A stretch of DNA of 64,000 bases, taken from contig JBAUWJ010000152.1 of assembly GCA_049583715.1 (NCBI GenBank), forward strand, positions 30 through 64,029, written 5' to 3'. The DNA comes from Arenicellales bacterium. GTDB lineage: Bacteria; Pseudomonadota; Gammaproteobacteria; Arenicellales; JAANXG01. Positions 747 through 15,445 of this stretch are shown here, piece by piece. How positions within the stretch are numbered: position 1 is the first letter of the stretch; the number at the start of each line of letters is the position of its first letter. Made by a program: the position numbers and the translations under genes. The notes beneath the pieces were generated by a model. It had not been told where the DNA came from, ran no database searches, and saw only the letters and a program-made list of their open reading frames with translations.

Positions 747-3269
747 GTGCTATTCCCTGACCGGAGCCCTGACTTGGTGTGGCAGGGCGCCCTTCGAAAC
801 CGGCACCATACGATAGCCAACCCCGACGATATCCTTCGACAGATTGCAACCCTGAGGGGCCGGCTGTCTGCACTCGATCGGGAACGGACGATGATCGCCG
901 AGGAATTGGCCGCGCTTGAACGCAGGCAAACAGAGAGGATGAAACGTCGGGGCAATACCGTTGGGAGCGTCACCATGGCCTCCCCCACCGACGCGAAGAT
1001 CGCGCTTTACCGCAGCCTCTTTCGCGGACGTCAGGATGTAGTGCCCCGTCGGTGGGAAAACCCAAGAACTGGGAAGACAGGCTACGCGCCCATGTGCCGG
1101 AACGAATGGGTCGCGGGAGTCTGCCGAAAGCCCAAGGTGAAGTGCGGGGAGTGCCCAAACCAGGCGTTTATCCCTACCAGCGACGATGTTGTCCGGGCCC
1201 ATCTTGCAGGAAAGGCCTCCGGCAACACGGCCGATTTCACGCTTGGCGTCTACCCAATGCTGCCGGACGAGACATGCTGGTTTCTCGCCGTCGATTTCGA
1301 CAAGAAGTCGTGGATACAGGACGTCGCGGCATTCCGCGACACCGCGCGGGCCAAGGGTGTGCCCGTCGCCATCGAACGGTCACGCTCGGGCAATGGTGCT
1401 CATGTCTGGATCTTTTTCGCCGAGCCGGTACCGGCTACAGACGCAAGGCGCCTCGGTGCACTTCTTGTCACGGCAACGATGAATCGCTGCCCCGATATCG
1501 GCTTCGATTCGTATGATCGGTTCTTTCCGAGCCAGGACACACTGCCAGAGGGCGGTTTCGGCAATCTGATCGCTTTGCCGCTGCAAAGCCAACCTCGTGT
1601 CAATGGTAACAGCGTCTTCCTCGATGACGATTTCCTCCCCTATGAAGATCAGTGGGCGTATCTGTCAACGGTCGATCGGCTACCGTCTGCCGCGCTGACC
1701 TCCATCGTGGCCGAGGCTGCCGGTACCGGACAGATTGTGGCCGTTCGGATTCCCTCCACTGGAGAAGACGACCAGTCTTGGATGGGGCTGCCGTCCCGCC
1801 ACGGCAGGGAACCACCGCTCGATGGCGAGCTTCCCGGTTCGGTCGATGTCGTGCTGGGCAACCAGGTCTACATCGACCGAACGAAGCTACCGCCGGCCCT
1901 CGTGAACCGGATTGCACGGCTGGCCACCTTCCAGAACCCCGAGTTCTATGCGGCGCAGGCCATGCGCCTACCGACTTTCGGTAAGCCGCGCGTCATCTCC
2001 TGTGCCGAGTTGTATCCCAAACATGTCGCCCTGCCAAGGGGATGCATCGATGAGCTTCGGAATCTTCTCGGTGAGTGGGGCATTGCCGTCGAGCTGCGCG
2101 ACGAACGCCAACCTGGACTGCCCCTCGGCACACGTTTTCTCGGTAGTCTGACCCCGGAACAGAATGAAGCGGCGAATACCCTTCTCCAGTCTGAAACCGG
2201 GGTGCTCGCGGCGACCACGGCATTCGGCAAGACCGTTGTTGCCGCGAAACTGATTGCGGAGCGGGATCGAAATGTCCTGGTCCTCGTCCATCGCCGGCGC
2301 CTTCTCGATCAATGGTCGGCGCACTTACAGAACTTTCTGGATATTGCGCCGCATAGGCTTGGGGTCGTTCATGGCGGAAAGAGGAAGCCGAGCGGCCACG
2401 TCGACATTGCTCTCATGCAGAGTTTGATACGGAAAGGCGCCGTGGCCGACCTTGTCGCCGACTATGGGCACCTCATCGTCGATGAATGCCATCACGTGTC
2501 CGCCGTGAGCTTCGAAGCCATCGTCCGAGAGGCCAGGGCCCGATACGTGCTCGGCCTGTCTGCCACGGTGACGCGCAAGGACGGCCGCCATCCCATCATC
2601 TTCATGCAATGCGGCCCGATCCGCCATCGTGTCGACGCCAGGAAACAGGCAGCTCTTCGTCCCTTCGACCACAAGGTCGTGTTCCGGCGGACCGAGTTCC
2701 GGTACGTCCCGAACGATGACAATGAAAGGCCGCGGATCCAGGAGCTCTACGCAAAGCTCGCCCGAGATGGCGAACGGAACGATCTCATCTTCGATGACAT
2801 CCTGTCGGCCCTCGAAGAGGGTCGTTCGCCTGTGGTCATCACCGAACGCAAGGATCATCTCGATCAGCTGGCCGCACGTCTGTCGAAATTTGCAAAGAAC
2901 GTCATCGTTCTGCGGGGTGGAATGAGCACACGGCAGTCACGGATGGCAACCGAGGCTTTGGCCACAATCCCGGCCGGTGAAGAGCGCGTTCTGGTGGCGA
3001 CGGGTCGTTATCTCGGTGAGGGCTTCGATGATGCGCGGCTCGATACCCTGTTTTTGACCATGCCGATTTCCTGGCGCGGAATCCTTGCGCAGTATGCCGG
3101 CCGGCTGCACCGGTTGCACGCGACCAAACACGATGTCGTCATTTACGACTATGTGGATGAAAACGAGCCGATGCTGGCAAAGATGGCGGCCAAGAGAGAG
3201 GCCGGATATCGCAGCCTTGGGTACCGAACAGCATCGAAGGAGGAGTTTGGGAACCGCAAGAGCAAATAA
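747..3269 (+). CDS. Archaeo-eukaryotic primase (Prim-Pol)-like domain fused to an SF2 DEAD/DEAH-type helicase (840 aa)
   Basis: N-terminal coiled coil, then Cys cluster C117-x8-C126-x6-C133-x2-C136. AEP motifs: AVDFD (aa 181-185), SGNGAHVW (aa 214-221), GFGNLIALPLQ. Helicase motifs: I AFGKT (K495), II DECH (aa 579-582), III SAT, VI QYAGRLHR. The start is uncertain: M1 at 747, or M49 at 891. Confidence 0.85.
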   Translation: MLFPDRSPDLVWQGALRNRHHTIANPDDILRQIATLRGRLSALDRERTMIAEELAALERRQTERMKRRGNTVGSVTMASPTDAKIALYRSLFRGRQDVVPRRWENPRTGKTGYAPMCRNEWVAGVCRKPKVKCGECPNQAFIPTSDDVVRAHLAGKASGNTADFTLGVYPMLPDETCWFLAVDFDKKSWIQDVAAFRDTARAKGVPVAIERSRSGNGAHVWIFFAEPVPATDARRLGALLVTATMNRCPDIGFDSYDRFFPSQDTLPEGGFGNLIALPLQSQPRVNGNSVFLDDDFLPYEDQWAYLSTVDRLPSAALTSIVAEAAGTGQIVAVRIPSTGEDDQSWMGLPSRHGREPPLDGELPGSVDVVLGNQVYIDRTKLPPALVNRIARLATFQNPEFYAAQAMRLPTFGKPRVISCAELYPKHVALPRGCIDELRNLLGEWGIAVELRDERQPGLPLGTRFLGSLTPEQNEAANTLLQSETGVLAATTAFGKTVVAAKLIAERDRNVLVLVHRRRLLDQWSAHLQNFLDIAPHRLGVVHGGKRKPSGHVDIALMQSLIRKGAVADLVADYGHLIVDECHHVSAVSFEAIVREARARYVLGLSATVTRKDGRHPIIFMQCGPIRHRVDARKQAALRPFDHKVVFRRTEFRYVPNDDNERPRIQELYAKLARDGERNDLIFDDILSALEEGRSPVVITERKDHLDQLAARLSKFAKNVIVLRGGMSTRQSRMATEALATIPAGEERVLVATGRYLGEGFDDARLDTLFLTMPISWRGILAQYAGRLHRLHATKHDVVIYDYVDENEPMLAKMAAKREAGYRSLGYRTASKEEFGNRKSK

Positions 3270-3527
3270 TCCTTGAAGCACTCTTCCGCGTCGAAAGGCG
3301 TGTCAATTGAAGAACACCCCTAATCCGGAGCCAGCCCAAGCCGATCCTGGTAAACCGGAGCTTCGTGGTCCGAGCGTTGTGCCTATTCCGTTTGGGGTGC
3401 CGAGTCATTCTTTAAAAGCCGCCCCGAGCACGCCGACGCCGACGTCGAATGGTGTTTCGCCGCTTTCGCACATCCACCCGGGACGAAATGTGCTACACTT
3501 TGTGGGCACTTCATTTGGGTGAAGAGG

Positions 3528-3860
3528 ATGGAAGACTTCGATGTTTTTTCGGTACGGGATCTCAGAAACCGTTCTGGCGATCTGTTGCGGGATGCGGCAG
3601 CCGGCAAGGTCTCGTTGATCACCAAGCGCGGCACGCCTGCCATCCTGGCGTTACCGTTCGACGAGCACCTGCTCCGCCACGGCGTACATCGGGCGCTGGC
3701 GCTACATCTTTTCGAGTCCGGTCGGATGACCCTCACACAAGCAGCCAAGGTTGCCGACCTGTCCGTCGAGGAATTCGTAGCGCTGCTCGGTGAAGCCGGG
3801 ATACCCGCCGTCGACTATGCGCCCGAGGAGTTGAGGGAGGAGCTGGATACCGCTCGGTGA
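3528..3860 (+). CDS. Two-domain antitoxin: Phd/YefM-like N-terminus fused to a UPF0175-like C-terminus
   Basis: MEDFDVFSVRDLRNRSGDLLRDAAAGKVSLITKRGTPAILALP resembles Phd/YefM. LFESGRMTLTQAAKVADLSVEEFVALLGEAGIP resembles UPF0175. I prefer ATG 3528, which follows GAAGAGGA, over the track's GTG 3519. The stop overlaps the next gene's start (GTGATG). Confidence 0.7.
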   Translation: MEDFDVFSVRDLRNRSGDLLRDAAAGKVSLITKRGTPAILALPFDEHLLRHGVHRALALHLFESGRMTLTQAAKVADLSVEEFVALLGEAGIPAVDYAPEELREELDTAR

Positions 3861-4366
3861 TGGGTATCATTGTCGCCGATGCCAGCCCGCTGATCGGTCT
3901 GGCCAGAGCGGGCCGCCTCGAGCTCCTTCAAAGGCTCTATGGCTCGGTATGGATCCCTCCCGCTGTCCGTGATGAACTTCAAATCGGTTCACAACGCCCC
4001 GGCGCTTCGCGGCTCGAAAGCGCTTTGACGTCGGGTTGGCTCAAGGTCCACGGGCTTCCCGGATCGACTGACACCACCCTGACGCAACTCGCTCCTATCG
4101 TCGATGCCGGAGAAGCCGAGGCGATCGTGCTTGCGGAGCACATTGATTGTCGATTTCTACTGATCGACGACAGGCAAGGAAGAAGCATCGCGAAACGCCG
4201 GGGTGTGCCGGTTGTCGGTGTCGCGGGCATCTTGCTGGCGGCAAAGTATCACGGATTGATCGATGCCGTTTTACCGGTCATCCGTGAACTGGGGCAGGAA
4301 GGTTACCGATTGTCGTCCAGGCTCATGCGTGAGATCGCCAGACTAGCCGATGAAACGATGGAATGA
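3857..4366 (+). CDS. PIN-like nuclease, DUF3368-type (predicted toxin partner of UPF0175 antitoxins)
   Basis: IVADASPLIGLARAGRLELL..., DAGEAEAIVLA and LLIDDRQGR provide the conserved acidic residues of DUF3368/PIN proteins. The gene is translationally coupled to the upstream antitoxin. Confidence 0.75.
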   Translation: MMGIIVADASPLIGLARAGRLELLQRLYGSVWIPPAVRDELQIGSQRPGASRLESALTSGWLKVHGLPGSTDTTLTQLAPIVDAGEAEAIVLAEHIDCRFLLIDDRQGRSIAKRRGVPVVGVAGILLAAKYHGLIDAVLPVIRELGQEGYRLSSRLMREIARLADETME

Positions 4367-4710: not shown

Positions 4711-4731
4711 TGCCCGGGGCCGGACTCGAAC
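4711..4731. repeat. 21-nt exact direct repeat of the tRNA-Leu 3' end (att-like island junction)
   Basis: TGCCCGGGGCCGGACTCGAAC at 4711-4731 is identical to 6434-6454, the 3' acceptor/T-arm of tRNA-Leu read on the plus strand. Confidence 0.8.
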
Positions 4732-5180
4732 TCTGTTCTTCATCAACTACTTACATAGGCTTGGCGTAAAGTTGGCGTAAGTGATAGAACGTTGACAGAG
4801 AGGCACGCGCGCCACAGTCCTGGACCAGGGACGCACCGGTGACTACGTCAACATCTTCATTTCTACCCCAATCGTGGATCCAGTCCCTGCGCACTTCGCC
4901 CCTCCAGCGTGACGTTGGAACAACTGTCGGGCTGAAGCCCAACCTGTGCTCTCCGCCAAGGCGGCTTCGATCATCGCCTTCTGATCAGCGGCAAGCTTTC
5001 CGGAAAGCGACCGGGTTTGAGGGGACACTTCCACCGGCGGCATAGCGATGAACGAAGTACTCTTCACCCAGGAGTGGGACTGCCGGGCTCCAAGGCAACT
5101 GGTGGAGTGCCCGAAGAGGGGCCAGGGAGGCCGGGCGCTCCCGGCCGATGCCCCTTACGCTGGTTCCGGAGCCACCATAG

Positions 5181-5225
5181 ATGTCAATACAGATGTATTG
5201 ACATTCGCGAGAACCTGCTTAAGAT
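5181..5225 (+). promoter_or_regulatory. Sigma70-like promoter with an overlapping perfect inverted repeat (putative operator) for the RHH/NTase operon
   Basis: IR ATGTCAATAC-agat-GTATTGACAT at 5181-5204. TTGACA at 5198-5203, 16-nt spacer, TAAGAT at 5220-5225. The ATG at 5232 lies about 7 nt after the -10, which suggests a leaderless mRNA. Confidence 0.45.
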
Positions 5226-5231
5226 TGCGCC

Positions 5232-5729
5232 ATGGCCCGTGACCTGAAAACTACGCAGCTTCAGATCCGTCTGTCACCGCGTGAGAAGACCCGTATTGCC
5301 AGAGCCGCCAAATGCGCCGGTCTGGATGTGTCCGCCTATGTTCTGGGCCGGCTCCGGGAGCCCGCCGCGGAGAGATTTCAAGCATTGGTCAGCGAGCTGG
5401 CGACCGCCCCGGACCCAACTTTCGTCCTCGCCACCCTCAACGACTTCCTGGAGACTCTGGCGCCCGAAGACTTTCAAGCCGCCTGCGCACAGTCGCCGGC
5501 GCATTCACTGAACCCGCTCGCCGCCAATTATCTTGCCGCCATGGTCGAAACAGCCGCGCACCGCAAGCGCCGGCGCCCGCCCTCCTGGACCGCCCGCATC
5601 GAGCCTCTGGACGAGCCATGGTTTGCGTCTGGACTGCGGAGTCTCCGCCTCTGGCTGCTGGTGGTGTCGCCGCCGCCGTTCAAGCGGCGCAACCTATTCA
5701 TAGATGCCGGCCTGGGGGATCGGGTATGA
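5232..5729 (+). CDS. Ribbon-helix-helix (CopG/MobC-like) N-terminal domain protein with an uncharacterised C-terminal domain; putative antitoxin/regulator
   Basis: LQIRLSPREKTRIARAAKCAGLDVSAYVLGRL is a typical RHH segment. Its stop overlaps the next gene's ATG (ATGA at 5726-5729). Confidence 0.6.
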   Translation: MARDLKTTQLQIRLSPREKTRIARAAKCAGLDVSAYVLGRLREPAAERFQALVSELATAPDPTFVLATLNDFLETLAPEDFQAACAQSPAHSLNPLAANYLAAMVETAAHRKRRRPPSWTARIEPLDEPWFASGLRSLRLWLLVVSPPPFKRRNLFIDAGLGDRV

Positions 5730-6259
5730 CGGTTGCGCTGACCCGCGATAAAATCACAAAGCTTTTCCACGCGCTCAACGAGGAGCTCGCCCAGCAAGGG
5801 ATTTCGGGCGAAGTCTATGTGGTCGGTGGAGCTGTGATGTGCCTGGCAATGAAGGCACGGCAATCTACGCGTGATATCGACGCAGTCTTCGCCCCTGCCC
5901 CGGTAATCCGGGAAGCCGCCGCGCGCGTCGCGGAAGCGCTGCATGCCGACAAGGGCTGGTTGAACGATGCCGTAAAGGGATTTCTGAGCGATGCGGGACA
6001 GTTCCAAGACTATCTGGAACTGAGTCACCTGCGCGTGCTCGTCGCCCAGCCCGAGTACCTGCTGGCCATGAAGTGCCTCTCGATGCGCTTGGGCGCGGAA
6101 TTTCAGGATGAGCGGGACATTCAATTCCTGCTGCGTTACCTCAACATTGACGCCTACGACCAGGCAGTTGCCATCATCTCGAAGTACTACCCCCTCGAAC
6201 GCTTCCCTCAAAAGACACTGTACGCGTTGGAGGAGATGCTCACGCCAAAGGCACGATAA
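5726..6259 (+). CDS. Small nucleotidyltransferase-fold protein (MNT/AbiEii/DUF6036-like), putative toxin or effector
   Basis: The 177-aa protein starts MTVALTRDKITKLFHALNEEL and has the NTase signature YVVGGAVMCLAMKARQSTRDIDAVF (GG...[ST]xDxD). Only the 3' part of track ORF 5312-6259 is credible. Confidence 0.65.
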   Translation: MTVALTRDKITKLFHALNEELAQQGISGEVYVVGGAVMCLAMKARQSTRDIDAVFAPAPVIREAAARVAEALHADKGWLNDAVKGFLSDAGQFQDYLELSHLRVLVAQPEYLLAMKCLSMRLGAEFQDERDIQFLLRYLNIDAYDQAVAIISKYYPLERFPQKTLYALEEMLTPKAR

Positions 6260-6346
6260 CGGCACGACGGCTCCTCCCGCTTGCACATGAGCGTGCTCAA
6301 CCCGGCTGAATTCACGGCAGAAGTCTACATAAGACTCTCGGTCAAC

Positions 6347-6403
6347 ATCCTGTATTGCTTCGCTTCGCTCGCAACGACGGTGACACAATTAACCAGAGTT
6401 TCC
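6347..6403. repeat. Half copy of repeat family C
   Basis: ATCCTGTATTGCTTCGCTTCGCTCGCAACGACGGTGACACAATTAACCAGAGTTTCC matches the right arm of the full elements at 17425-17555 and 59876-59995. Confidence 0.7.
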
Positions 6404-6433
6404 CTAAAGTACGAGTCGCCGAATTTAGTAATT

Positions 6434-6766
6434 GTGCCCGGGGCCGGACTCGAACCGGCACGGCCTTACGGCCAGCGGATTTTACTTGCCCACTACAGCT
6501 TTTGCTGCCCGCCGGAGGACCGGCGGTTTGGGGTCTGGACTATCTCTTTGCCCTATGCGGGCTCGTCGCCGCGCACTTAGGCAGGGGCCGTCTAGTCTCT
6601 ACACTTTCCCCGATCGTGGACCACATCCCACGCATGAGGCTTAGCTCGGGATTGCCATCAGCTTGACCTGTTAAGGGTTCCCCGAATTTGACCCCTGACT
6701 CACCACGGGTTTCCCCGTGGCGGACCCGAACCGAGTCCGCTGCGTCTACCTGTTCCGCCACCCGGG
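6434..6766 (-). tRNA. tRNA-Leu(UAA), interrupted in the anticodon loop by a group I intron (exons 6766-6733 and 6483-6434)
   Basis: Joined exons give GCCCGGGTGGCGGAACAGGTAGACGCAGCGGACT + TAAAATCCGCTGGCCGTAAGGCCGTGCCGGTTCGAGTCCGGCCCCGGGCA, 84 nt. This is a class II tRNA with a long variable arm, acceptor GCCCGGG/CCCGGGC and anticodon loop CUUAAAA. CCA is not encoded. Confidence 0.9.
6484..6732 (-). ncRNA. Group I intron (IC3-like, tRNA-intron type), 249 nt, no internal ORF
   Basis: P1 pairs GCGGACU(CG) with (CG)GGUCCGC, with a U-G wobble at the 5' splice site. The last intron nucleotide is G (6484). R-like GUGUAGAGACUAGACGG (plus 6587-6603), S-like AAAGAGAUAGUCCAG (plus 6534-6548) and Q-like GGCAAUCCCGAGC are present. 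It resembles my recollection of the Anabaena tRNA-Leu intron. Confidence 0.85.
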
Positions 6767-6830
6767 CAGTCGCGAGGCAAGCTTAAGGTCTTTGGAGGGT
6801 GTTTGCAAAACAAGGGGGGAACAGGGAACC

Positions 6831-6904
6831 TGGAGGCTGGGCCCGGAATCGAACCGAGGTCCGCGGATTTGCAGTCCGCTGCATAACCACTCTGCCACCC
6901 AGCC
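6831..6904 (-). tRNA. tRNA-Cys(GCA)
   Basis: GGCTGGGTGGCAGAGTGGTTATGCAGCGGACTGCAAATCCGCGGACCTCGGTTCGATTCCGGGCCCAGCCTCCA folds as a cloverleaf. Anticodon loop CUGCAAA; CCA is encoded. Confidence 0.95.
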
Positions 6905-7266
6905 CGAGATGGACGATCGCGACCGCCGGCGGCTCTGCGGAAAATACTCGCTGGAGGCCGAGTTCCGCGGCAGGGGGCGAATCGTACAAAAAGCGTTGCT
7001 GCACCGCAAGCACTCGATCCCCGCCGCCGGGCGCACAAGCAGTCAAGCCGGAACAGCTCCGGGAGCTCTCCTCCCATCCCGGAAAGTCCGGCATAACCCG
7101 GCGACACTTCGCCCGTTAAGGAGTTGATTTCATTGGGACTTCACCCGGTGTCACAAGCACTTGTAGTACACTACGGAACTCAATCGCGTGCCGGGGCAGT
7201 CCGCCCAGTCGCCGGATCGTTGCACCGTTCGCTGCAACTTCATACACACCTTCGCTGGCCACGACC

Positions 7267-8238
7267 ATGATCCCGACAGAGCTGCGCGGCTCTCCCCCAT
7301 CGGATGATGCTCCGAAGAGCCCGAAGTGGCTCGTGATCACCAGGCGCGCTCTGCACATCGGATTCGTGCTCGCGATCTGCGGCTATCTGGTCTACCGACT
7401 CTCCGAGCTCGGTTGGTACGAAGTACTCGCCTCGTTGCCGGTGTCCCCCTGGTTCTATGTCCTGTTCGTGGTGCGGTTTCTCAGTTTGCCGCTGTTCGAA
7501 ATCGTCATCTATCGGCGTTTCTGGCGGTTCTCCATCCCACGCTCGATTCCCGTGTTCCTGCGCAAGCGCGTCTACAACCACGCGCTTCTGGACTACTCCG
7601 GAGAGGCCTATTTCTATCTCTGGGCCCAGAAGAACTCCCGCGACCCCGAGACGAGAACCTTCTCGATTATCAAGGATGTGAACATCGCGTCGGCCATCGT
7701 CTCCATTGCGGTCATGATCGCGCTGCTGCTGGCCTTTGCCAATTCGAGCTCGGTTCACCAGATCGACAGGTTCTTTCCGTCCGCCAATGTTTACCTCTGG
7801 GTCTTCTCGTCGTTCAGCTTCGTCTCGCTGTGCTTCCTTGTCGCTTTCCGGCGCCGCGTCGTGTTCCTGCCGGCCACCGACATGGCGGCTGTGTCGGCAA
7901 TTCATATCGTGCGCCTCGCCGTGGTGCTTCTCCTTCAGGCCCTGCAGTGGTGGGTCGCGATACCGGCGGTGCCGCTCATGGACTGGCTGTTCTTCCTCAC
8001 GCTGTACATGGTTGTGGGGCGCCTGCCCTTCGTCCCAAGCAAGGATCTGACCTTCCTCGCCGTCGCCGTCGCGTTCGCCGGCACCGTACCGGCCGAGGAA
8101 ACCGCCATCAGCGCCATGTTCCTCGCCAACCTGGCCTTGTATCAGATCGCCAACCTGTTCGTGTATACGGGAACGTCCTTCAAGGACCACGCAATGTTCA
8201 TAGGCAAGGCCGAAAGACGGCAGTCCCGCCATGCCTAG
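7267..8238 (+). CDS. Polytopic inner-membrane protein, possibly UPF0104 / lysyl-PG-synthase-TM (flippase-like) family
   Basis: Seven or more hydrophobic helices, e.g. HIGFVLAICGYLVYRL and WFYVLFVVRFLSLPLFEIVIY. The motif NHALLDYSGEAYFYLWA resembles the N..P..GE signature of that family. The antisense ORF 7240-8433 is R/E/D/G-rich shadow. Confidence 0.5.
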   Translation: MIPTELRGSPPSDDAPKSPKWLVITRRALHIGFVLAICGYLVYRLSELGWYEVLASLPVSPWFYVLFVVRFLSLPLFEIVIYRRFWRFSIPRSIPVFLRKRVYNHALLDYSGEAYFYLWAQKNSRDPETRTFSIIKDVNIASAIVSIAVMIALLLAFANSSSVHQIDRFFPSANVYLWVFSSFSFVSLCFLVAFRRRVVFLPATDMAAVSAIHIVRLAVVLLLQALQWWVAIPAVPLMDWLFFLTLYMVVGRLPFVPSKDLTFLAVAVAFAGTVPAEETAISAMFLANLALYQIANLFVYTGTSFKDHAMFIGKAERRQSRHA

Positions 8239-9052
8239 CGCCTCCGGTGACACCACGGGGGGGATGATCCGGTCGAAAGCCGGTGGACCACACGGCGTCT
8301 CGACGATCAGCGCCCACGCCCTGCGGCTGGTCAGGTACTGTTGGCGCCTGGCGACACAACCGGACAGGGTCGTGCTGGATTCCAGCCGGCTGCTGGTCCC
8401 GGACATCTGCTCGGGCCAGGTGCGCCGCAGCATCTACGCCGGGCTGTACGAAGGCAGCGAGGTCAAAGCCGTAAGGAAGTTCGTCGGCGAGGGAGAGGTC
8501 GTCATCGATGCGGGTGCTTCAATCGGGTACCTGAGCCTCCAGATCGCCAGGATCGTCGGCTCCGATAATCTCTACGCCGTGGAAGCAAACCGGGACCTCC
8601 TGTCCCATATCGAAGCGAATTTCCGGGAGAATGGAGTTCCCTGCCCCCATCTGATTCACGGCCTGGTGTCCGCGCCCGGCCATACGGAGCGGCCTTTCAA
8701 CATATCCAGAGAGATCTGGTCGTCCTCCGTGCTGGATCGGGGGAACACGGCCAAGGTCGACGTCGTGCCCTGTGTCGATCTGGACGAGATGCTGGAAGAG
8801 ACGGGCGCCACGGTGCTGGTCTGCGACATAGAGGGGGGCGAATGCGAGCTGATCCAGCAATGCCGGTTCCCGGGGTTGAAAACGATCATCATGGAGCTTC
8901 ATCCGGACCTGTTCACGGGGCTCGACGTCCCCGGGGCCCTCGCCTCGCTGGGCGGCCGGAGTTTCGGCCTTCGCGAGATCGTCGACGGGAAAGTCTACGT
9001 ATTCACCCGTCAGGACGACCAGGAGCGATCGCGCAGCACCAGCTCGTCCTGA
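8231..9052 (+). CDS. FkbM-family SAM-dependent methyltransferase
   Basis: VVIDAGASIGYLSLQIAR and LVCDIEGGECELI...IIMELHP are typical FkbM motifs. There is an 8-nt overlap with the upstream membrane-protein gene. Confidence 0.7.
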   Translation: MPSASGDTTGGMIRSKAGGPHGVSTISAHALRLVRYCWRLATQPDRVVLDSSRLLVPDICSGQVRRSIYAGLYEGSEVKAVRKFVGEGEVVIDAGASIGYLSLQIARIVGSDNLYAVEANRDLLSHIEANFRENGVPCPHLIHGLVSAPGHTERPFNISREIWSSSVLDRGNTAKVDVVPCVDLDEMLEETGATVLVCDIEGGECELIQQCRFPGLKTIIMELHPDLFTGLDVPGALASLGGRSFGLREIVDGKVYVFTRQDDQERSRSTSSS

Positions 9053-9822
9053 CGCCGGCGGCGCAGCCGCGGGCCGAGAAACCCGTAGAAGTACCACTCT
9101 TTCATGGCGAACGGTGTCAGGTGGTAGAGGATCCGCTCCAGGAGGTCCCAGCGAACCGCCTTTCTGTCCTGCCTGCGGTCCGAGGGCATACACCACAGAT
9201 CGTAGTTGTAGACCGTGCGACCCAGGCGCAGGACGCGATTGACGAGCTCGTGATCCTTAACGACATAAGGCCAGACACGCCGCGAATAGCCGCCGGCACG
9301 CTTCAGGATCTCGGTGTTGAAGCACATGCCGTAACCGCCGGTGTGGCACTGATTGCGGAACACGCGGGACATGATCTGACCCTTGAGCCTGGCCAGTTTC
9401 GCGATACCGCTGCGGGGATGGGTATAGATGTCCATCGCCATGACGGCCGCTGTCTCCTCGTCGGCCCGCTCGAATATCGAGTCCGCGAGCGACAGGTAGT
9501 GAGGCGGGTAATAGGTGTCGGCGTCGCAGATGGCGACGTAATCCGTGTCCACCCCGGCGATGCCCGCCTCCAGGGCGTAGACCTGGCCCGGCCGGCGCTC
9601 ATTGAGAAACAGCACCTCGATGTCCTGCACGGCGGCGACCGCGCGGCGACAGATCAGCTCTGACGAGTCCGTCGAGCCGTTGTTCACGAGAATCAGCTTG
9701 AAGCCGCCCAGAGTCTGATCGAGCAGCGATCTCAGGGTGCGCTCGATGAACCGCTCTTCATTGAAATAAGGTATGACTACCGACCATGAGCGCCTGCTTG
9801 TCTGAGTCGGTGTTTTCTTCAT
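9010..9822 (-). CDS. Glycosyltransferase family 2
   Basis: MKKTPTQTSRRSWSVVIPYFNEERFIERTLRSLLDQT...LILVNNGSTDSS...ICDADTYYP (GT-A fold, DxD). I prefer the start at M (9822) over the track's 9930. Confidence 0.8.
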   Translation of the reverse strand: MKKTPTQTSRRSWSVVIPYFNEERFIERTLRSLLDQTLGGFKLILVNNGSTDSSELICRRAVAAVQDIEVLFLNERRPGQVYALEAGIAGVDTDYVAICDADTYYPPHYLSLADSIFERADEETAAVMAMDIYTHPRSGIAKLARLKGQIMSRVFRNQCHTGGYGMCFNTEILKRAGGYSRRVWPYVVKDHELVNRVLRLGRTVYNYDLWCMPSDRRQDRKAVRWDLLERILYHLTPFAMKEWYFYGFLGPRLRRRRQDELVLRDRSWSS

Positions 9823-10107
9823 GGCGTACCGGTCTGTGTGTTCAGAGTCTTCCCGCCGCGAACGGCCGCTGCAAGGCGCTGCGCCGTTCGGCAAACGAAG
9901 ACCGGGCTCGAAAACAAGTTGTGGATCCAAGACGGAAAACGTAGAATCCCGCGCCGAAAGGGAGAGTTCCTATAAGCCCTCGGGAGGCGAGTTTATCGGG
10001 ATTTTCAGCCGTCTTGTGCCCTGAAACCAGATCATAGCCAACTGATTAAATACAAACGCGTATTCGTAGTCAACGGAAGCTATCTGTACGTTTCTGACGG
10101 CTCGATC

Positions 10108-11205
10108 GTGACGTTGCGGCGTTTAGTGGATTTCCTCAGGGCAGGGGGCGTCGAAGTGACCGTAGTCTGCGGCGCCCGGTCCACCTCCGACGGGAGCTCG
10201 CACCCTGATTATATCGCCCAGGTACCGTCCGTCCCACTCCCCTTCGAGCCCGAGTATCGTCTTCCAGGCGGCTTGACGCGCACCGTAAAGCGGACGCTTC
10301 TCGCGAACCCCGACACCCTGATCCACCTGGGTGCGCCGGATACGCTGGCGGTTTCCTGCCTGCGCTTCGCCCGTCGCCATGGACTGCCCGTCGTCTCCTC
10401 CTTTCACAGCAATATCGTGTCGTATTTCCGCTATCTGCGGCTCCCCAGAGTCCTGGAGAGCCTCGGCTGGGCGTACTTTCGCTGGTTCTACGGGCGCTGC
10501 GACCAGGTATACGTCCCCACCGAATCCATGCGGGTGGAACTCGAGCGCCATGGGGTCCGGGCCAATTATCTGCTGTGGCCGCGGGGCGTGGACCGGGAGC
10601 GCTTCTCACCGGCCCACCGCTGCGAGGAATGGCGCTCGACCCACGGGGCGGCCCCCGAGGACATCATCGTCCTGTTCGTAGCGCGATTGAAATGGGAGAA
10701 GAATCTGAAGATGCTGTGCAGGATTATCGAGCGGCTCCACGCGCGATCCCCGCACATCAGGACCGTTATCGTCGGTGAAGGGGTCGCTTACAAGCACCTG
10801 ACACAGCATCTCCCCGAAACGCGGTTCACCGGGCGGCTGGGCGGCACCGAGCTGGCCAAGGCCTACGCCTCCTCGGATGTCTTTCTCTACCCCAGCACCA
10901 CGGATACCTTCGGCAACGTGACCCTGGAAGCCATGGCCTCGGGCCTGCCGGCGGTTTGCGCCGATGCGCCGGGCTCGCGGAACCTGGTGCGCTCGGGACA
11001 AACCGGCTATCTCGCGGACCCGGATTCCGTCGAGCAGTTCAGCGACTGCGTCACCCGGCTGGCGGAGGATACGGCGCTGCGGCGGCGGATGTCGCGGGCG
11101 GCCGTGCAGGACAGCGCCCGCTACGACTGGGATTCGGTCATGCACGCCATCTGCGGCTATTACGACGATCTGTACCAGCACAGACACACTGGCCCCAAAC
11201 ATTGA
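10108..11205 (+). CDS. Glycosyltransferase family 4 (GT-B, GT1-type); the true N-terminus probably lies upstream near 10042
   Basis: The C-terminal GT-B signature is VFLYPSTTDTFGNVTLEAMASGLPAV. The in-frame upstream peptide IKYKRVFVVNGSYLYVSDGS supplies the expected first beta-strand but has no ATG/GTG/TTG start. Confidence 0.75.
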   Translation: MTLRRLVDFLRAGGVEVTVVCGARSTSDGSSHPDYIAQVPSVPLPFEPEYRLPGGLTRTVKRTLLANPDTLIHLGAPDTLAVSCLRFARRHGLPVVSSFHSNIVSYFRYLRLPRVLESLGWAYFRWFYGRCDQVYVPTESMRVELERHGVRANYLLWPRGVDRERFSPAHRCEEWRSTHGAAPEDIIVLFVARLKWEKNLKMLCRIIERLHARSPHIRTVIVGEGVAYKHLTQHLPETRFTGRLGGTELAKAYASSDVFLYPSTTDTFGNVTLEAMASGLPAVCADAPGSRNLVRSGQTGYLADPDSVEQFSDCVTRLAEDTALRRRMSRAAVQDSARYDWDSVMHAICGYYDDLYQHRHTGPKH

Positions 11206-11241
11206 GGCGACCCCGGGACGCCCGGACCGAACGCGCCGGGT

Positions 11242-12834
11242 TCAGGAGCTGCGGCCGTCGATGAAACGCAGCTTGACCAGATCGTTTCCGTACGAGCCGG
11301 CGAGTTGCTTCAGCTCTCCGGCATTGCCTTGGAGGTCGACGATCTGGATGGTCGGGTCGATGAAGCCCATCGCGGGGAGGACGCCGCTGATCTGCAGCCT
11401 GGGCTTGTCCAACAGGGTCCTGTAGTAGGCCGCCCACTCGTCGTGGCTGGGGTAATGGACCCACAAGCTACTCGAGAGCATGATTCTCTCGTACTGAAAG
11501 CTCGATATCGCGGCGTATCGATAATGGTGTCCGCGCACGACCCCGGGCCGCAGGAAGGCTACGGAGACCTGGTCCGGGCGCGTATCCGTGAGAGTTTCAC
11601 ATTGCACACCGAAGCAGTCGCGCGTGTAGTGCTCGATCACGATCGGACCGGGTAAACGGTCCAGTATCCGCCCGGCGACGTCGCGGGTATCCAGGGCCAG
11701 CGCCTGATTGTACTTGCAGCTCAGGGAATACGCCGGCAGAGACAACAGGCACAGGGCCACCAACGGCAGAGCGGACCCCGGCTTCGGTCCCGGCCACGAC
11801 GCGACCTTCTCGAGCATCATCCCCGTGGTGATCGCCAGCAGGGGCACGAGGGGCATCGCATACCGCATGAAGTCCGGGAACGGCTTCATCGGGGTCGATT
11901 CGATCATCATGTAGTAGCCGCCGAGGGCGACCAGCAAGGTGCGGGTCGTCGTCGGATGGTCTCGCCATCCCAGCACCAGCCACAATGAAGCCACCAGGGC
12001 CGGAATCAGCAGCCACGAGGTCATGCCCGGCTGCAGGCTCGCAAGCAGATGAAAGGTCCACAGGAATTGGAACGGCAGGATTTTCGCCTGGTGGCCCTCG
12101 ATGGGATGGATCAACTCGTTGCCGAGCCCGTGTAGAAAGTTCCCGGGATCGAGAAACAGCGGCGCATTGACGACCAGAAATACCACGCAGGCCGTCAACA
12201 GCGCGCGACGCGTGGCCCGGCGAAAAGCTTCCTCATCGAAACCGTCCCCGGCGAGCCGCGGCACCGACCAGGCGAGCAGCAGCACGGCGGCGCCGATGTA
12301 CTTCGATGACATCGCGAGGCCCGAGGCCACCCCGAAAACCACCCATCGAAGCCGGGAAGGCACCCGGATCATGGCCATCAACGCGGCGAGGCTCAAGGTA
12401 GTGAAGCAGACGAACCAGGCGTCCTCCTTGAGGTAGTGCATGTGGACCACCGTCAACGGCGCTACAGCGGTGGCCAGCGCGCAGCCCAGGGCGGTGGCGC
12501 GGCCGACGAACCAGCGGGCGAGGAGATAACTTGCGAGCACGAAACCGATCCCGAACAAGGCAGCCACTTGGCGCCCCAGCAACAGCACCTGCTCAGCGTC
12601 TGACACATGTCGCAGCCACGCCGCCGCTTTGATGGTCAACAGCATGAGGATCGGGTGAAAGAAATCCTCCGTGCCCCGCAGAACGAACAACACCTTCTTG
12701 GCGCTCTCCGGATTATGCCCCGGGGAGTAGTCGATGTTCTGGTTGAAAAGGTGGTAACAGAAAGCGGCCAGCAACACCAGGACGACCGGCACCAGCCAGG
12801 CGCCGATCTCCGGTCTGCGGCCGGAGCTCAACAC
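11242..12834 (-). CDS. Polytopic membrane glycosyltransferase, GT-C fold (GT39/ArnT/PMT-like), putative
   Basis: About 12 predicted TM helices plus a soluble C-terminal domain, a general ArnT-like layout. The track ORF start (12933) overlaps tRNA-Gly. GTG at 12834 or ATG at 12645 are more plausible starts. Confidence 0.5.
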   Translation of the reverse strand: MLSSGRRPEIGAWLVPVVLVLLAAFCYHLFNQNIDYSPGHNPESAKKVLFVLRGTEDFFHPILMLLTIKAAAWLRHVSDAEQVLLLGRQVAALFGIGFVLASYLLARWFVGRATALGCALATAVAPLTVVHMHYLKEDAWFVCFTTLSLAALMAMIRVPSRLRWVVFGVASGLAMSSKYIGAAVLLLAWSVPRLAGDGFDEEAFRRATRRALLTACVVFLVVNAPLFLDPGNFLHGLGNELIHPIEGHQAKILPFQFLWTFHLLASLQPGMTSWLLIPALVASLWLVLGWRDHPTTTRTLLVALGGYYMMIESTPMKPFPDFMRYAMPLVPLLAITTGMMLEKVASWPGPKPGSALPLVALCLLSLPAYSLSCKYNQALALDTRDVAGRILDRLPGPIVIEHYTRDCFGVQCETLTDTRPDQVSVAFLRPGVVRGHHYRYAAISSFQYERIMLSSSLWVHYPSHDEWAAYYRTLLDKPRLQISGVLPAMGFIDPTIQIVDLQGNAGELKQLAGSYGNDLVKLRFIDGRSS

Positions 12835-12888
12835 AGGAAGGGTGCACCCGGCGGACAGGCCGGGACGGTGTACGGCACAGGGAAATTC

Positions 12889-12964
12889 TGGAGCGGGAAA
12901 CGAGGTTCGAACTCGCGACCTTCGCCTTGGCAAGGCGACGCTCTACCAGCTGAGCTATTCCCGC
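12889..12964 (-). tRNA. tRNA-Gly(GCC)
   Basis: GCGGGAATAGCTCAGCTGGTAGAGCGTCGCCTTGCCAAGGCGAAGGTCGCGAGTTCGAACCTCGTTTCCCGCTCCA folds as a cloverleaf. Anticodon loop UUGCCAA. Confidence 0.95.
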
Positions 12965-13028: not shown

Positions 13029-13616
13029 TCAGGACGGCTCCTGCCCGCTCAGCGCGGGCCACGCGGATCTCAAATAGGCGAACATCGACCACAGAGTGAG
13101 GGCGGCCGCGAGATACAGCAACCATTCGCCCACGATGATGGTCGGTATACCCATGAACTTGTACTTGTACACGAGCATGGTGATGGCGACCATCTGCAGC
13201 AGCGTCTTGGACTTCCCGACCAGGGACACCGCGACGCTCGCGCGCTTGCCGAGCTCGGCCATCCATTCCCGCAGCGCCGACACGGTGATCTCGCGACCGA
13301 TGATCACCGCGGCGGTGATGGCGAACAGTATGCTGCTGAAGACCGAAGCCTGGATCTTGTGGTCTCCCACCAGCAGGACGAGGGCCGTCGTGACGATCAG
13401 CTTGTCCGCCACCGGGTCCAGGAATGCTCCGAAGGAGGAGGACTGCTCGAGTCGTCTGGCCAGAAAGCCGTCCAGCCAGTCCGTGACCCCGGCAATGATG
13501 AATATCCAGGCGGCCCACACCGGCGACCACGCGTAGGGCAGCCAGTACACGACCACGAAGACCGGGACCAGAGCGATCCGCAGCAGCGTCAATATATTCG
13601 GAATGGTATACGTCAC
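13029..13616 (-). CDS. pgsA: CDP-diacylglycerol--glycerol-3-phosphate 3-phosphatidyltransferase
   Basis: MTYTIPNILTLLRIALVP...GVTDWLDGFLARRL...GAFLDPVADKL, the CDP-alcohol phosphatidyltransferase motif. Confidence 0.93.
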   Translation of the reverse strand: MTYTIPNILTLLRIALVPVFVVVYWLPYAWSPVWAAWIFIIAGVTDWLDGFLARRLEQSSSFGAFLDPVADKLIVTTALVLLVGDHKIQASVFSSILFAITAAVIIGREITVSALREWMAELGKRASVAVSLVGKSKTLLQMVAITMLVYKYKFMGIPTIIVGEWLLYLAAALTLWSMFAYLRSAWPALSGQEPS

Positions 13617-13633: not shown

Positions 13634-15445
13634 CTATTGATGGAAGTGTTTGTAGATCCTGCGCGCCAGGTCCGAACTGATGCCGGGCACCTTCGAGAGG
13701 TCGTCTATTCCCGCCCTCTGAATCTCCTGGAGGCCACCCAGGTGCCTGAGCAGAGACTGGCGGCGCTTCTGGCCCACGCCGGGGATTTCCTGCAGCGAAG
13801 ACGTGACCCGCGCCCTGGCCCGCCGCCGCCGGTGCCCGGTAATGGCGAAACGATGGGCTTCGTCCCGGATTTGTTGAATGAGATGCAGGCCCGTCGAGTG
13901 GGCGCGGGGGCGGATCGCGTGTCTCGTCCCGGACACGTACAGCTTCTCGAAACCCGGCTTGCGGGTGGGTCCCTTGGCCACGGCCATGATCGAGACGCCG
14001 TCTATCTGCAATTCCTCGAGAACCTCCTCGGCAACGGCGAGCTGCCCTTTGCCCCCGTCGATGATCAGGAGGTCGGGAACGCGCCCCTCCCCGTCCTTGA
14101 GCTTCTTGTACCGGCGTGAGAGGGCTTCCCTCAACGCCGCGTAGTCATCGCCCGGCGCCCCGGGCTTGACGTTGTATCGACGGTAGTCCGCGGTCTCCGG
14201 GCCGCCCTCGTCGAAGACGACACAGGAAACGACGGCGGCCTCTCCCTGCGTGTGGCTCACGTCCACGCATTCCATGCGCTGCGGCACCGCCTCGAGGCCC
14301 AGGATGCGCTGCAGCGATTCGCGCTTTTCCACCTGGCCGGCCTGCTCACAGAGGTGCCCCGCGAGGTGATGACGGGCATTCTCCGTGGCGCTGTCGAGCA
14401 GGCGCGCCCTGCGTCCGCGCGGCCTCGCCTGGAGACGAACCTTCCGGCCTTCTCGCTCCGAGAGCATGCCTTCGATGAGTGCGGCGCCCCGCGGCGCCGG
14501 ATGCACCAGGATCTGAGGCGGCACGGGCTTGTCCAGGTAGAACTGTCCCAGGAAGGCGCTCATCACCTCCTCCGCCCGGGTCTCCAGGTTGATCCTGGGG
14601 AAGAAAGCCTTGCTGCCACTGTGCCGGCCGGACCGTACGAAGGTCACGTCGATGCAGGCCGCGCCGGCCTCCATCGCCAGGGCCACGACGTCCCAGTCGC
14701 CGTCGCCGCTGCTGATGGACTGCGTCTCCTGGATGCGCGCGAGGGAGCGGATCCGGTCGCGATACATGGCGGCGGTCTCGAAATCCATCTCGGACGATGC
14801 CTTCTCCATGGTATCCGACAGGTAGTGATGCAGCCTGTCATTCCGGCCCTCGAGAAACAGCACCGCCTGCTCTACGTCCCGCCGGTATCGCTCAGCGTCG
14901 ACATAGCCGACGCAGGGCGCGGTGCAGCGCTCGATCTGGTACTGCAGGCAGGGGCGCGAGCGGGTACGGTAGAAGGTGTCCTCGCACTGCCGGACGGGAA
15001 AGATCTTCTGGAGCTGCGCCAGGATCTCTCGCACCGCACCGGCGTTCGCGTAGGGACCGAAGTAGCGGCCCGGCTGGGAGCGGTTGCCGCGGTAGAAGCC
15101 GAGGCGGGGAAACTCGGTGCTGTCATCGAGATGGATGTAGGGATAGCTCTTGTCGTCCCGCAGCACGACGTTGTAGCGCGGCCGGTGCTTCTTGATGAGA
15201 TTGTTCTCGAGCAGCAGGGCCTCGCTTTCCGTGTGGGTCCTGATGACCTCGATGTTTGCGACGTGACGCATCATGGCCTGGGTCTTGGGCGGCAGCCCGC
15301 TCGAGCGGAAGTAGCTCGCGACCCGCTTCTTCAGGCTTCTGGCCTTGCCGACATAGATGGGTTCCCCCGCCGCGCTCATCATCTGATAAACGCCGGGAGA
15401 GTCGTCGAGGGTCGCCAGGAACGCTTTGGAATCGAATTCGGGCAT
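13634..15445 (-). CDS. uvrC: Excinuclease ABC subunit C
   Basis: 603 aa. N-terminal GIY-YIG (GVYQM...IYVGKA...LKKR), UVR domain, C-terminal (HhH)2. Confidence 0.95.
   Translation of the reverse strand: MPEFDSKAFLATLDDSPGVYQMMSAAGEPIYVGKARSLKKRVASYFRSSGLPPKTQAMMRHVANIEVIRTHTESEALLLENNLIKKHRPRYNVVLRDDKSYPYIHLDDSTEFPRLGFYRGNRSQPGRYFGPYANAGAVREILAQLQKIFPVRQCEDTFYRTRSRPCLQYQIERCTAPCVGYVDAERYRRDVEQAVLFLEGRNDRLHHYLSDTMEKASSEMDFETAAMYRDRIRSLARIQETQSISSGDGDWDVVALAMEAGAACIDVTFVRSGRHSGSKAFFPRINLETRAEEVMSAFLGQFYLDKPVPPQILVHPAPRGAALIEGMLSEREGRKVRLQARPRGRRARLLDSATENARHHLAGHLCEQAGQVEKRESLQRILGLEAVPQRMECVDVSHTQGEAAVVSCVVFDEGGPETADYRRYNVKPGAPGDDYAALREALSRRYKKLKDGEGRVPDLLIIDGGKGQLAVAEEVLEELQIDGVSIMAVAKGPTRKPGFEKLYVSGTRHAIRPRAHSTGLHLIQQIRDEAHRFAITGHRRRRARARVTSSLQEIPGVGQKRRQSLLRHLGGLQEIQRAGIDDLSKVPGISSDLARRIYKHFHQ

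Follow-up and report, generated by a model that had tools for sequence, protein, structure and literature searches.

An IC3-like group I intron interrupts a gammaproteobacterial tRNA-Leu(UAA) gene between U33 and U34

The tRNA-Ile(CAU) intron of Azoarcus serves as the structural model for IC3 ribozymes. A deep-subsurface gamma-proteobacterial isolate reportedly carries a tRNA-Leu(UAA) gene with an IC3-type intron, an observation attributed to Vepritskiy et al. in J Bacteriol, 2002. Reviews up to 2014 listed bacterial tRNA group I introns only in cyanobacteria and a few alpha- and beta-proteobacteria. Williams (bioRxiv 2020, doi 10.1101/2020.01.27.920355) catalogued 5,292 bacterial tRNA genes split by group I introns in 21 settings, which include Leu.2Ug and comprise four classical and 17 new ones. 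The settings are named by numbered anticodon-loop positions, the classical cyanobacterial case being Leu.3Ug (CUU/a...g/AAAA), and, according to Williams, the four classical bacterial types are labeled IC3 by the GISSD database. In the same source, the seed alignment includes one Leu.2Ug sequence, 'Eba21.Leu.2Ug', and the 12 seeds of the Rfam model employed there are described as containing no bacterial sequence. The literature searched contained no work on gammaproteobacterial tRNA introns later than that of Williams.

This study examines a split tRNA-Leu(UAA) gene in a 64,000-nucleotide stretch of gammaproteobacterial DNA, referred to here as the window. An earlier note on this DNA had proposed that the gene is interrupted by a 249-nt group I intron, and the covariance-model match together with tRNA detection on the spliced exons bears this out; the split gene with its intron is confirmed as genuine. 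The best explanation, which we consider highly probable, is a functional tRNA-Leu(UAA) gene whose ORF-less IC3-type intron, inserted at U33/U34, is an old and mainly vertically inherited resident of its locus. The observed part of this explanation comprises sequence anatomy, homology, conservation and covariation.

Anatomy of the split gene and its intron

The whole split gene occupies positions 6435-6767 on the minus strand; the interval given in the earlier note, 6434-6766, had the right length and was shifted by one base. When the exons, GCCCGGGUGGCGGAACAGGUAGACGCAGCGGACU and UAAAAUCCGCUGGCCGUAAGGCCGUGCCGGUUCGAGUCCGGCCCCGGGCA, are joined in silico, ARAGORN reports an 84-nt class II tRNA-Leu(UAA) with a complete cloverleaf, a long variable arm and the anticodon loop CUUAAAA, in agreement with the 34- and 50-nt exons and canonical class II product that had been proposed. 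In the unspliced window, default ARAGORN calls no tRNA-Leu. The insertion lies between U33 and U34 (CU/...G/UAAAA): exon 1 ends in GGACU and the intron starts with C, whereas the intron ends in CAAG and exon 2 starts with UAAAAUCC. The predicted spliced junction therefore reads GCGGACU joined to UAAAAUCCGC or, in a wider version, ...GCAGCGGACU joined to UAAAAUCCGCUGG.... The 3' CCA of the tRNA is not encoded, CAA being the next triplet, and a simple consensus scan of 6200-7300 detected neither a sigma-70 promoter nor a terminator. Coordinates of the gene, its structural elements and its neighbors are collected in Table 1.

Table 1. Positions and composition of the split gene, the structural elements of its intron and the flanking features in the window
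Feature	Position	Strand	Composition	Basis or remark
tRNA-Leu(UAA) exon 1	6734..6767	-	34 nt; acceptor, D arm, 5' anticodon stem; 3' end C32 U33	In-silico splice, ARAGORN
Group I (IC3-like) intron	6485..6733	-	249 nt; starts C6733, terminal omega G6485; no ORF	RF00028, covariation, MFE
tRNA-Leu(UAA) exon 2	6435..6484	-	50 nt; U34 A35 A36, 3' anticodon stem, long variable arm, T arm, acceptor, discriminator A	ARAGORN on joined exons
P1	6722..6738	-	Exon GGACU plus intron C (6738-6733) with internal guide GGGUCC (6727-6722)	
P2 hairpin	6703..6720	-	CCACGGG/CCCGUGG; GAAA tetraloop L2 (6713-6710)	5/7 pairs compensatory
P3 5' strand, J3/4, P4, P5/P5a	6645..6695	-	P3 5' strand 6695-6690; J3/4 AAA; P4 6686-6680 with 6651-6645; P5/P5a 6676-6655	RF00028, covariation, MFE
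P6/P6a/P6b	6604..6644	-	Variable hairpin; no ORF	P6a 3/4 pairs compensatory
J6/7, P7 5' strand, P3 3' strand	6584..6602	-	J6/7 and P7 5' strand GUAGAGACUA (6602-6593); GAC; P3 3' strand GGCCCC (6589-6584)	'R' element of the earlier note
P8/P8a, J8/7, P7 3' strand	6537..6583	-	P8/P8a hairpin 6583-6549; J8/7 AAGAGA; P7 3' strand UAGUCC (6542-6537)	'S' element of the earlier note; compensatory pairs in P8 and P8a
P9 three-way domain	6488..6534	-	P9 6534-6531 with 6491-6488; P9a hairpin 6525-6510; P9b hairpin 6507-6496	Covariation, relatives comparison
tRNA-Cys(GCA)	6831..6904	-	Immediately upstream of split tRNA-Leu	Member of Gly-Cys-Leu cluster
tRNA-Gly(GCC)	12889..12964	-	Ancestral cluster partner	Displaced by ~6-kb insertion
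pgsA	13029-13616			High-confidence identification
uvrC	13634-15445			High-confidence identification
Direct repeat of tRNA-Leu 3' end	4711..4732	+	21/22 nt, att-like	1.7 kb downstream of gene

The earlier note had proposed a search with the Rfam group I model RF00028. The intron matches this model over its full length (6524-6743 on the minus strand, model positions 1-253 of 253) with 47.8 bits, 2.2 bits short of the curated gathering score of 50, and the match is far beyond chance, with E-values of 4.4e-11 in a 601-nt search and 4.7e-9 in the whole window. The lack of a significant RF00028 match, which the earlier note had listed as a refuting outcome, is therefore not what was observed. Run in E-value mode, RF00028 gave no further group I signal in the 64-kb window. 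Folded without constraints, the intron has a minimum free energy of -112.3 kcal/mol (z = -3.96), and the resulting structure includes P2, P3, P4, P5/P5a, P6a/b, P9a and P9b. The U-G wobble at the 5' splice site and the last intron nucleotide G, both anticipated in the earlier note, are present in the sequence, as are its three conserved core strings GUGUAGAGACUAGACGG, AAAGAGAUAGUCCAG and GGCAAUCCCGAGC. Its IC3-type reading also held up. The intron can be described as IC3-like on the basis of hallmark features, namely a small core without P5abc, IC3-type J6/7-P7 and J8/7, homology to the Azoarcus and Anabaena introns, and GNRA tetraloops (L2 GAAA; L9b GAAA in 19 relatives, AAAA in the window), together with 73-91% identity to 14 seed sequences.

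Relatives were sought with the pattern GGACTC-N2-8-GGGTCC-N15-45-TCAAATTCGGGG, which specifies 24 bases and for which about one chance match is expected. Among 185,579 species-representative genomes, 23 loci matched, and the same pattern retrieved the same split gene from 19 metagenome contigs. All 42 relatives splice in silico at the same site to give tRNA-Leu(UAA), with U(-1) and the terminal G, which corresponds to G6485 in the window. Intron lengths in this set range from 222 to 696 nt.

For covariation analysis, 20 compact introns with eight exon nucleotides on each side were aligned, and canonical helices were drawn by hand. Across P1-P9, including the P3/P7 pseudoknot, 98.8% of 1,154 pair cells in these 20 sequences are standard pairs, and both partners have changed in 14 of 59 pairs (belonging to P2, P3, P6a, P8, P8a and P9b), which supports the P3-P8 core and its pseudoknot by covariation. 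None of 500 shuffles equaled any observed measure, and sliding the 3' partners by one to three columns lowered pairing to 34-47%. P4, P5, P6 and P7 are invariant or almost so and thus uninformative on covariation. P1 comprises 6 bp, all paired in 20/20 sequences, including the U33.G6726 wobble; however, the search pattern preselected P1 in the relatives and fixes its sequence as well as that of J3/4-P4, so that invariance there is not independent evidence. In the window, P1 can be extended to 8 bp through two G-C pairs (6740-6739 with 6721-6720). The guide is extended to GGGUCCGC in the window and in two relatives (L003 and L022), where it duplicates the sequence of the anticodon stem's 3' strand. 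Since P1 takes up exon nucleotides G29-U33, it would compete with the anticodon stem. By eye, no conserved P10 is evident in the alignment of 20 introns: the guide-loop sequences vary (CGUCA, CGCCG, CUUUU, CGGUUC and others) without a consistent complement to UAAAA, and no P10 is therefore claimed.

From this architecture we infer both the splicing chemistry and activity in vivo. The split gene would be transcribed from the minus strand, probably together with tRNA-Cys. In the transcript, the internal guide GGGUCC(GC) is predicted to pair with exon (GC)GGACU to form P1, placing U33 in the U.G wobble, and an exogenous guanosine bound in P7 would attack after U33. The terminal G6485 would then take the same P7 site, allowing the freed 3'-OH of U33 to attack before U34. 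Joining of the exons would create the loop CUUAAAA. The anticodon stem, in competition with P1 for G29-A31, could then re-form. Across 43 sequences, the exons are conserved and the fold evolves by compensatory change, which speaks for a gene in use and for working splicing.

State of the window copy and demand for its tRNA

The catalytic core is intact in the window, where every core position conserved in the relatives is kept. Where 18 or more of 19 relatives agree, the window departs meaningfully at only two sites, both of them private changes in the peripheral P9 domain. At A6503, the L9b loop reads AAAA instead of GAAA, so that the GNRA tetraloop is lost, and at C6488 the outermost P9 pair, nearest the 3' splice site, becomes A x C in place of A-U. 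These changes may be real, mild lesions or assembly errors. If real, they could weaken tertiary folding. In IC3 ribozymes, as established for that of Azoarcus, losing a peripheral tetraloop contact usually makes splicing more dependent on Mg2+ and does not abolish it, and by analogy the two changes would raise the Mg2+ requirement of the window intron rather than abolish its splicing.

A decaying copy that splices inefficiently, a pseudogene or nearly so, with UUA and UUG decoded by another tRNA-Leu gene elsewhere, is an alternative that we regard as unlikely. Both private changes weaken the P9 peripheral domain, the gene abuts the probable remnant of an integrated element, and an uninterrupted tRNA-Leu(UAA) gene could sit in the genome beyond the 64 kb in view; selection on the tRNA may also be weak, given how rare its codon is. 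Against decay, the exons form a perfect cloverleaf, the window copy combines an intact core with complete pairing in P1, P3, P4, P7 and P8, and the 42 relatives keep exons and fold under purifying selection with compensatory changes. The Mg2+ effect known from the Azoarcus ribozyme likewise tells against a loss of splicing.

Codon demand was assessed in 28 long ORFs of the window. Of their roughly 15,000 codons, 11 are UUA (0.73 per 1000), the rarest leucine codon. Among the genes checked, TTA occurs only in accessory or defence ORFs (GT4, TOTE and PIN), and neither uvrC nor pgsA contains it. Since standard wobble rules allow UUA to be read by no other anticodon, the cell probably still needs this tRNA. 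Given the low demand, however, the tRNA may be less essential than the earlier description of an essential-type tRNA dependent on splicing implied.

Low UUA demand leaves room, speculatively, for a weakly selected or regulatory role, and the distribution of TTA codons is reminiscent of the bldA situation in Streptomyces. A bldA-like gate, in which splicing-dependent supply of the sole UUA decoder controls UUA-containing, largely acquired genes, is a distant prospect that we consider distinctly improbable. If it were true, expression of UUA genes would depend on conditions for ribozyme folding (Mg2+, GTP and temperature), and the gate would account for the vertical persistence of the intron, in place of its loss, throughout a deep gammaproteobacterial lineage.

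Downstream of the tRNA-Leu gene, a 1.7-kb integrase-less segment (4733-6434) extends to the att-like repeat. It contains genes for an antitoxin-like protein (5232-5729; NikA-like/TacA1) and for a DUF6036 nucleotidyltransferase (5729-6259), and was probably left behind by an element that had integrated at the 3' end of the tRNA gene. The region past the repeat (747-4366), which flanks the tRNA-Leu gene with defence-island-like content, encodes a TOTE-system AEP primase with a fused ResIII/DEAD helicase (747-3269; PF22548, E 2.5e-94) as well as a PIN/DUF3368 protein (3857-4366).

Inheritance, locus and annotation across relatives

All 23 matching genomic loci belong to Gammaproteobacteria, a taxonomic range that is a lower bound because the pattern is specific to P1. 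They derive from metagenome-assembled genomes (MAGs) labeled Gammaproteobacteria, Thiotrichales or Ectothiorhodospiraceae, and from the isolate Thioalkalivibrio sp. HK1 (L023), the one carrier in culture; neither these loci nor the metagenome contigs include the species of the window. No viral contig matched the split-gene pattern. Among the matches, the closest intron (83.5% identity) is that of L003, a Red Sea brine MAG, and the nearest relative by protein is L022, a MAG from Salar de Ascotan soil (UvrC 82%, PgsA 84%). In some relatives UvrC is only about 50% identical, with uvrC-pgsA still linked upstream of the tRNA cluster. Across 17 genomes, pairwise intron identity follows pairwise UvrC identity (Spearman 0.77, Mantel r 0.87, 0/5000 permutations). 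This parallel divergence suggests vertical inheritance at a conserved locus and fits a long residence of the intron, passed on mainly by descent, in a gammaproteobacterial lineage most of whose members are uncultured.

A tight cluster of tRNA-Gly, tRNA-Cys and split tRNA-Leu is present at 20 of the 23 loci, and tRNA-Gly and tRNA-Cys are adjacent in all 20 relatives holding both, with a gap of 130 nt in L022. Because the uvrC-pgsA-tRNA order is conserved among the relatives, uvrC-pgsA-tRNA-Gly-tRNA-Cys-tRNA-Leu, which resembles uvrC-pgsA-glyW-cysT-leuZ of E. coli, is on this comparison the ancestral order here. The synteny described in the earlier note is thus correct as an ancestral order, whereas in the window it is not contiguous, about 6 kb separating tRNA-Gly from tRNA-Cys. 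The intervening segment (6905-12888) contains a GT2 glycosyltransferase (9010-9930, minus strand), a GT4 glycosyltransferase (10108-11205, plus strand), a methyltransferase-like ORF (8231-9052, plus strand) and unannotated ORFs, and its GC content is unremarkable. A search for att-like repeats bounding this insertion returned only short chance repeats.

Open reading frames occur within the introns of two relatives. In L010 (5421-6132, minus strand), an ORF of 158 aa, antisense to the Leu.2Ug intron and located in the P6 loop, encodes a clear HNH endonuclease (PHROG 10822, E 6.9e-37; Pfam HNH 21.0 bits, cutoff 21.4). In L030, whose intron measures 632 nt, an antisense ORF, likewise in the P6 loop, is 77% identical to that of L010 over 110 aa, with a frame-disrupted HNH part. 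The two ORFs look like a homing-endonuclease gene carried in antisense orientation and captured at two different points of its decay. The long introns of five further relatives (L008, L018, L023, L035 and L038; 342-468 nt) contain extra P6, P8 or P9 sequence without a convincing ORF, which may represent eroded insertions.

These ORFs, and the many different tRNA anticodon loops that host the same intron family, could be read as signs of an intron that is currently mobile, homing among gammaproteobacteria and present here through recent invasion. Such a history is very improbable: the 249-nt window copy has no ORF, the ORF of L030 is already disrupted, the correlation with UvrC is strong, and locus and insertion site are identical throughout. 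Old, mainly vertical residence accordingly remains the preferred reading of the locus.

Default annotation overlooks this class of intron. With the Rfam gathering threshold, the window yields three tRNAs only, the RF00028 score being 2.2 bits too low for the intron to be included, and none of 18 relatives' introns (L001-L018) is reported. ARAGORN finds tRNA-Leu in 0 of 23 relatives' loci. The apparent absence of intron and tRNA-Leu is a matter of threshold and algorithm, overturned by E-value mode and in-silico splicing. Carrier genomes consequently appear to lack a tRNA-Leu(UAA) gene, as the earlier note had foreseen for gene callers in general, and the three spurious ORFs that it named, 6281-6580 (+), 6355-6666 (+) and 6540-6761 (-), all exist. 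Other carriers may likewise receive spurious ORF calls across the split gene, and the missed tRNA can distort inferences on tRNA complement, codon capacity and MAG completeness. The group affected comprises widespread uncultured gammaproteobacteria from marine, brine and soil samples.

Relation to known tRNA introns

The window intron was aligned pairwise to 14 of the seeds of Williams. The best seed is Eba21.Leu.2Ug (90.7% identity over 246 aligned nt), whereas seeds of 13 other settings reach 73-84%, including the non-cyanobacterial Ncf2.Leu.3Ug (84.4%), the Azoarcus Ile2.5Ug (82.6% over 178 aligned nt) and the cyanobacterial Sel1.Leu.3Ug (73.7%). The split falls between loop nucleotides 2 and 3, with U(-1) and omega G (CU/c...g/UAAAA), and not at U34/A35 as in Leu.3Ug (CUU/.../AAAA). 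By site and similarity, the intron is a member of the already catalogued Leu.2Ug setting. The view that tRNA introns are merely sporadic in proteobacteria is countered by the 5,292 genes of Williams and by the 42 further Leu.2Ug examples found here.

A parallel with the tRNA-Leu(UAA) introns typical of cyanobacteria and plastids had also been drawn. Recent horizontal acquisition of such an intron, which the shared host tRNA, the IC3-like architecture and a length equal to the ~249 nt of the Anabaena intron might suggest, is effectively refuted, as the site is one nucleotide off, identity to the cyanobacterial Leu.3Ug seed is far below that to Leu.2Ug and to several proteobacterial introns in other tRNAs (82-84%), intron divergence mirrors host divergence, and the viral contigs scanned hold no copies. 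A cyanobacterial origin was rejected because of site and similarity. Because the insertion lies one nucleotide upstream and the sequence is closer to proteobacterial tRNA introns, the resemblance is one of analogy rather than orthology. The window intron leaves the understanding of group I introns unchanged; it provides a well-supported, vertically inherited case in which group I introns have invaded tRNA-Leu(UAA) independently, a single nucleotide from the cyanobacterial and plastid site.

Among the introns compared, the Leu.2Ug seed Eba21 is the closest. It shares with the window the tRNA, the insertion point, U(-1), the terminal G and P1 (GGACUC/GGGUCC), and its P3, P4, P7, J8/7 and P9b are near-identical. 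As reconstructed, Eba21.Leu.2Ug is 366 nt long (including five exon nucleotides) with insertions in P6, P8 and P9, whereas the window intron is compact and has AAAA instead of GAAA in L9b. The Azoarcus tRNA-Ile(CAU) intron (Ile2.5Ug) shares near-identical core strings, GUCAAAUUCGG, GGUGUAGAGACUAGACGGC and AUAGUCCAG, and the GAAA tetraloop in L2; it resides in another tRNA, after loop nucleotide 5, and has a simple P9 hairpin in contrast to the three-way P9/P9a/P9b domain of the window. The cyanobacterial tRNA-fMet intron (fMet.2Ug) has the same loop position (nucleotides 2/3, U33/N34), IC3 type and an occasional homing endonuclease gene. It differs in its tRNA, and I-Ssp6803I, encoded by some fMet.2Ug introns, is a sense-strand PD-(D/E)XK enzyme, whereas the endonuclease ORF in relatives of the window intron is antisense HNH and the window has none. 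Finally, the Leu.3Ug intron of Anabaena/Nostoc and plastids has in common the isoacceptor, the anticodon loop, a small IC3-type core and the lack of an ORF; it lies one nucleotide downstream (U34/A35), and its short P1 leaves the anticodon stem intact, whereas P1 of the window intron takes in G29-A31 of the stem.
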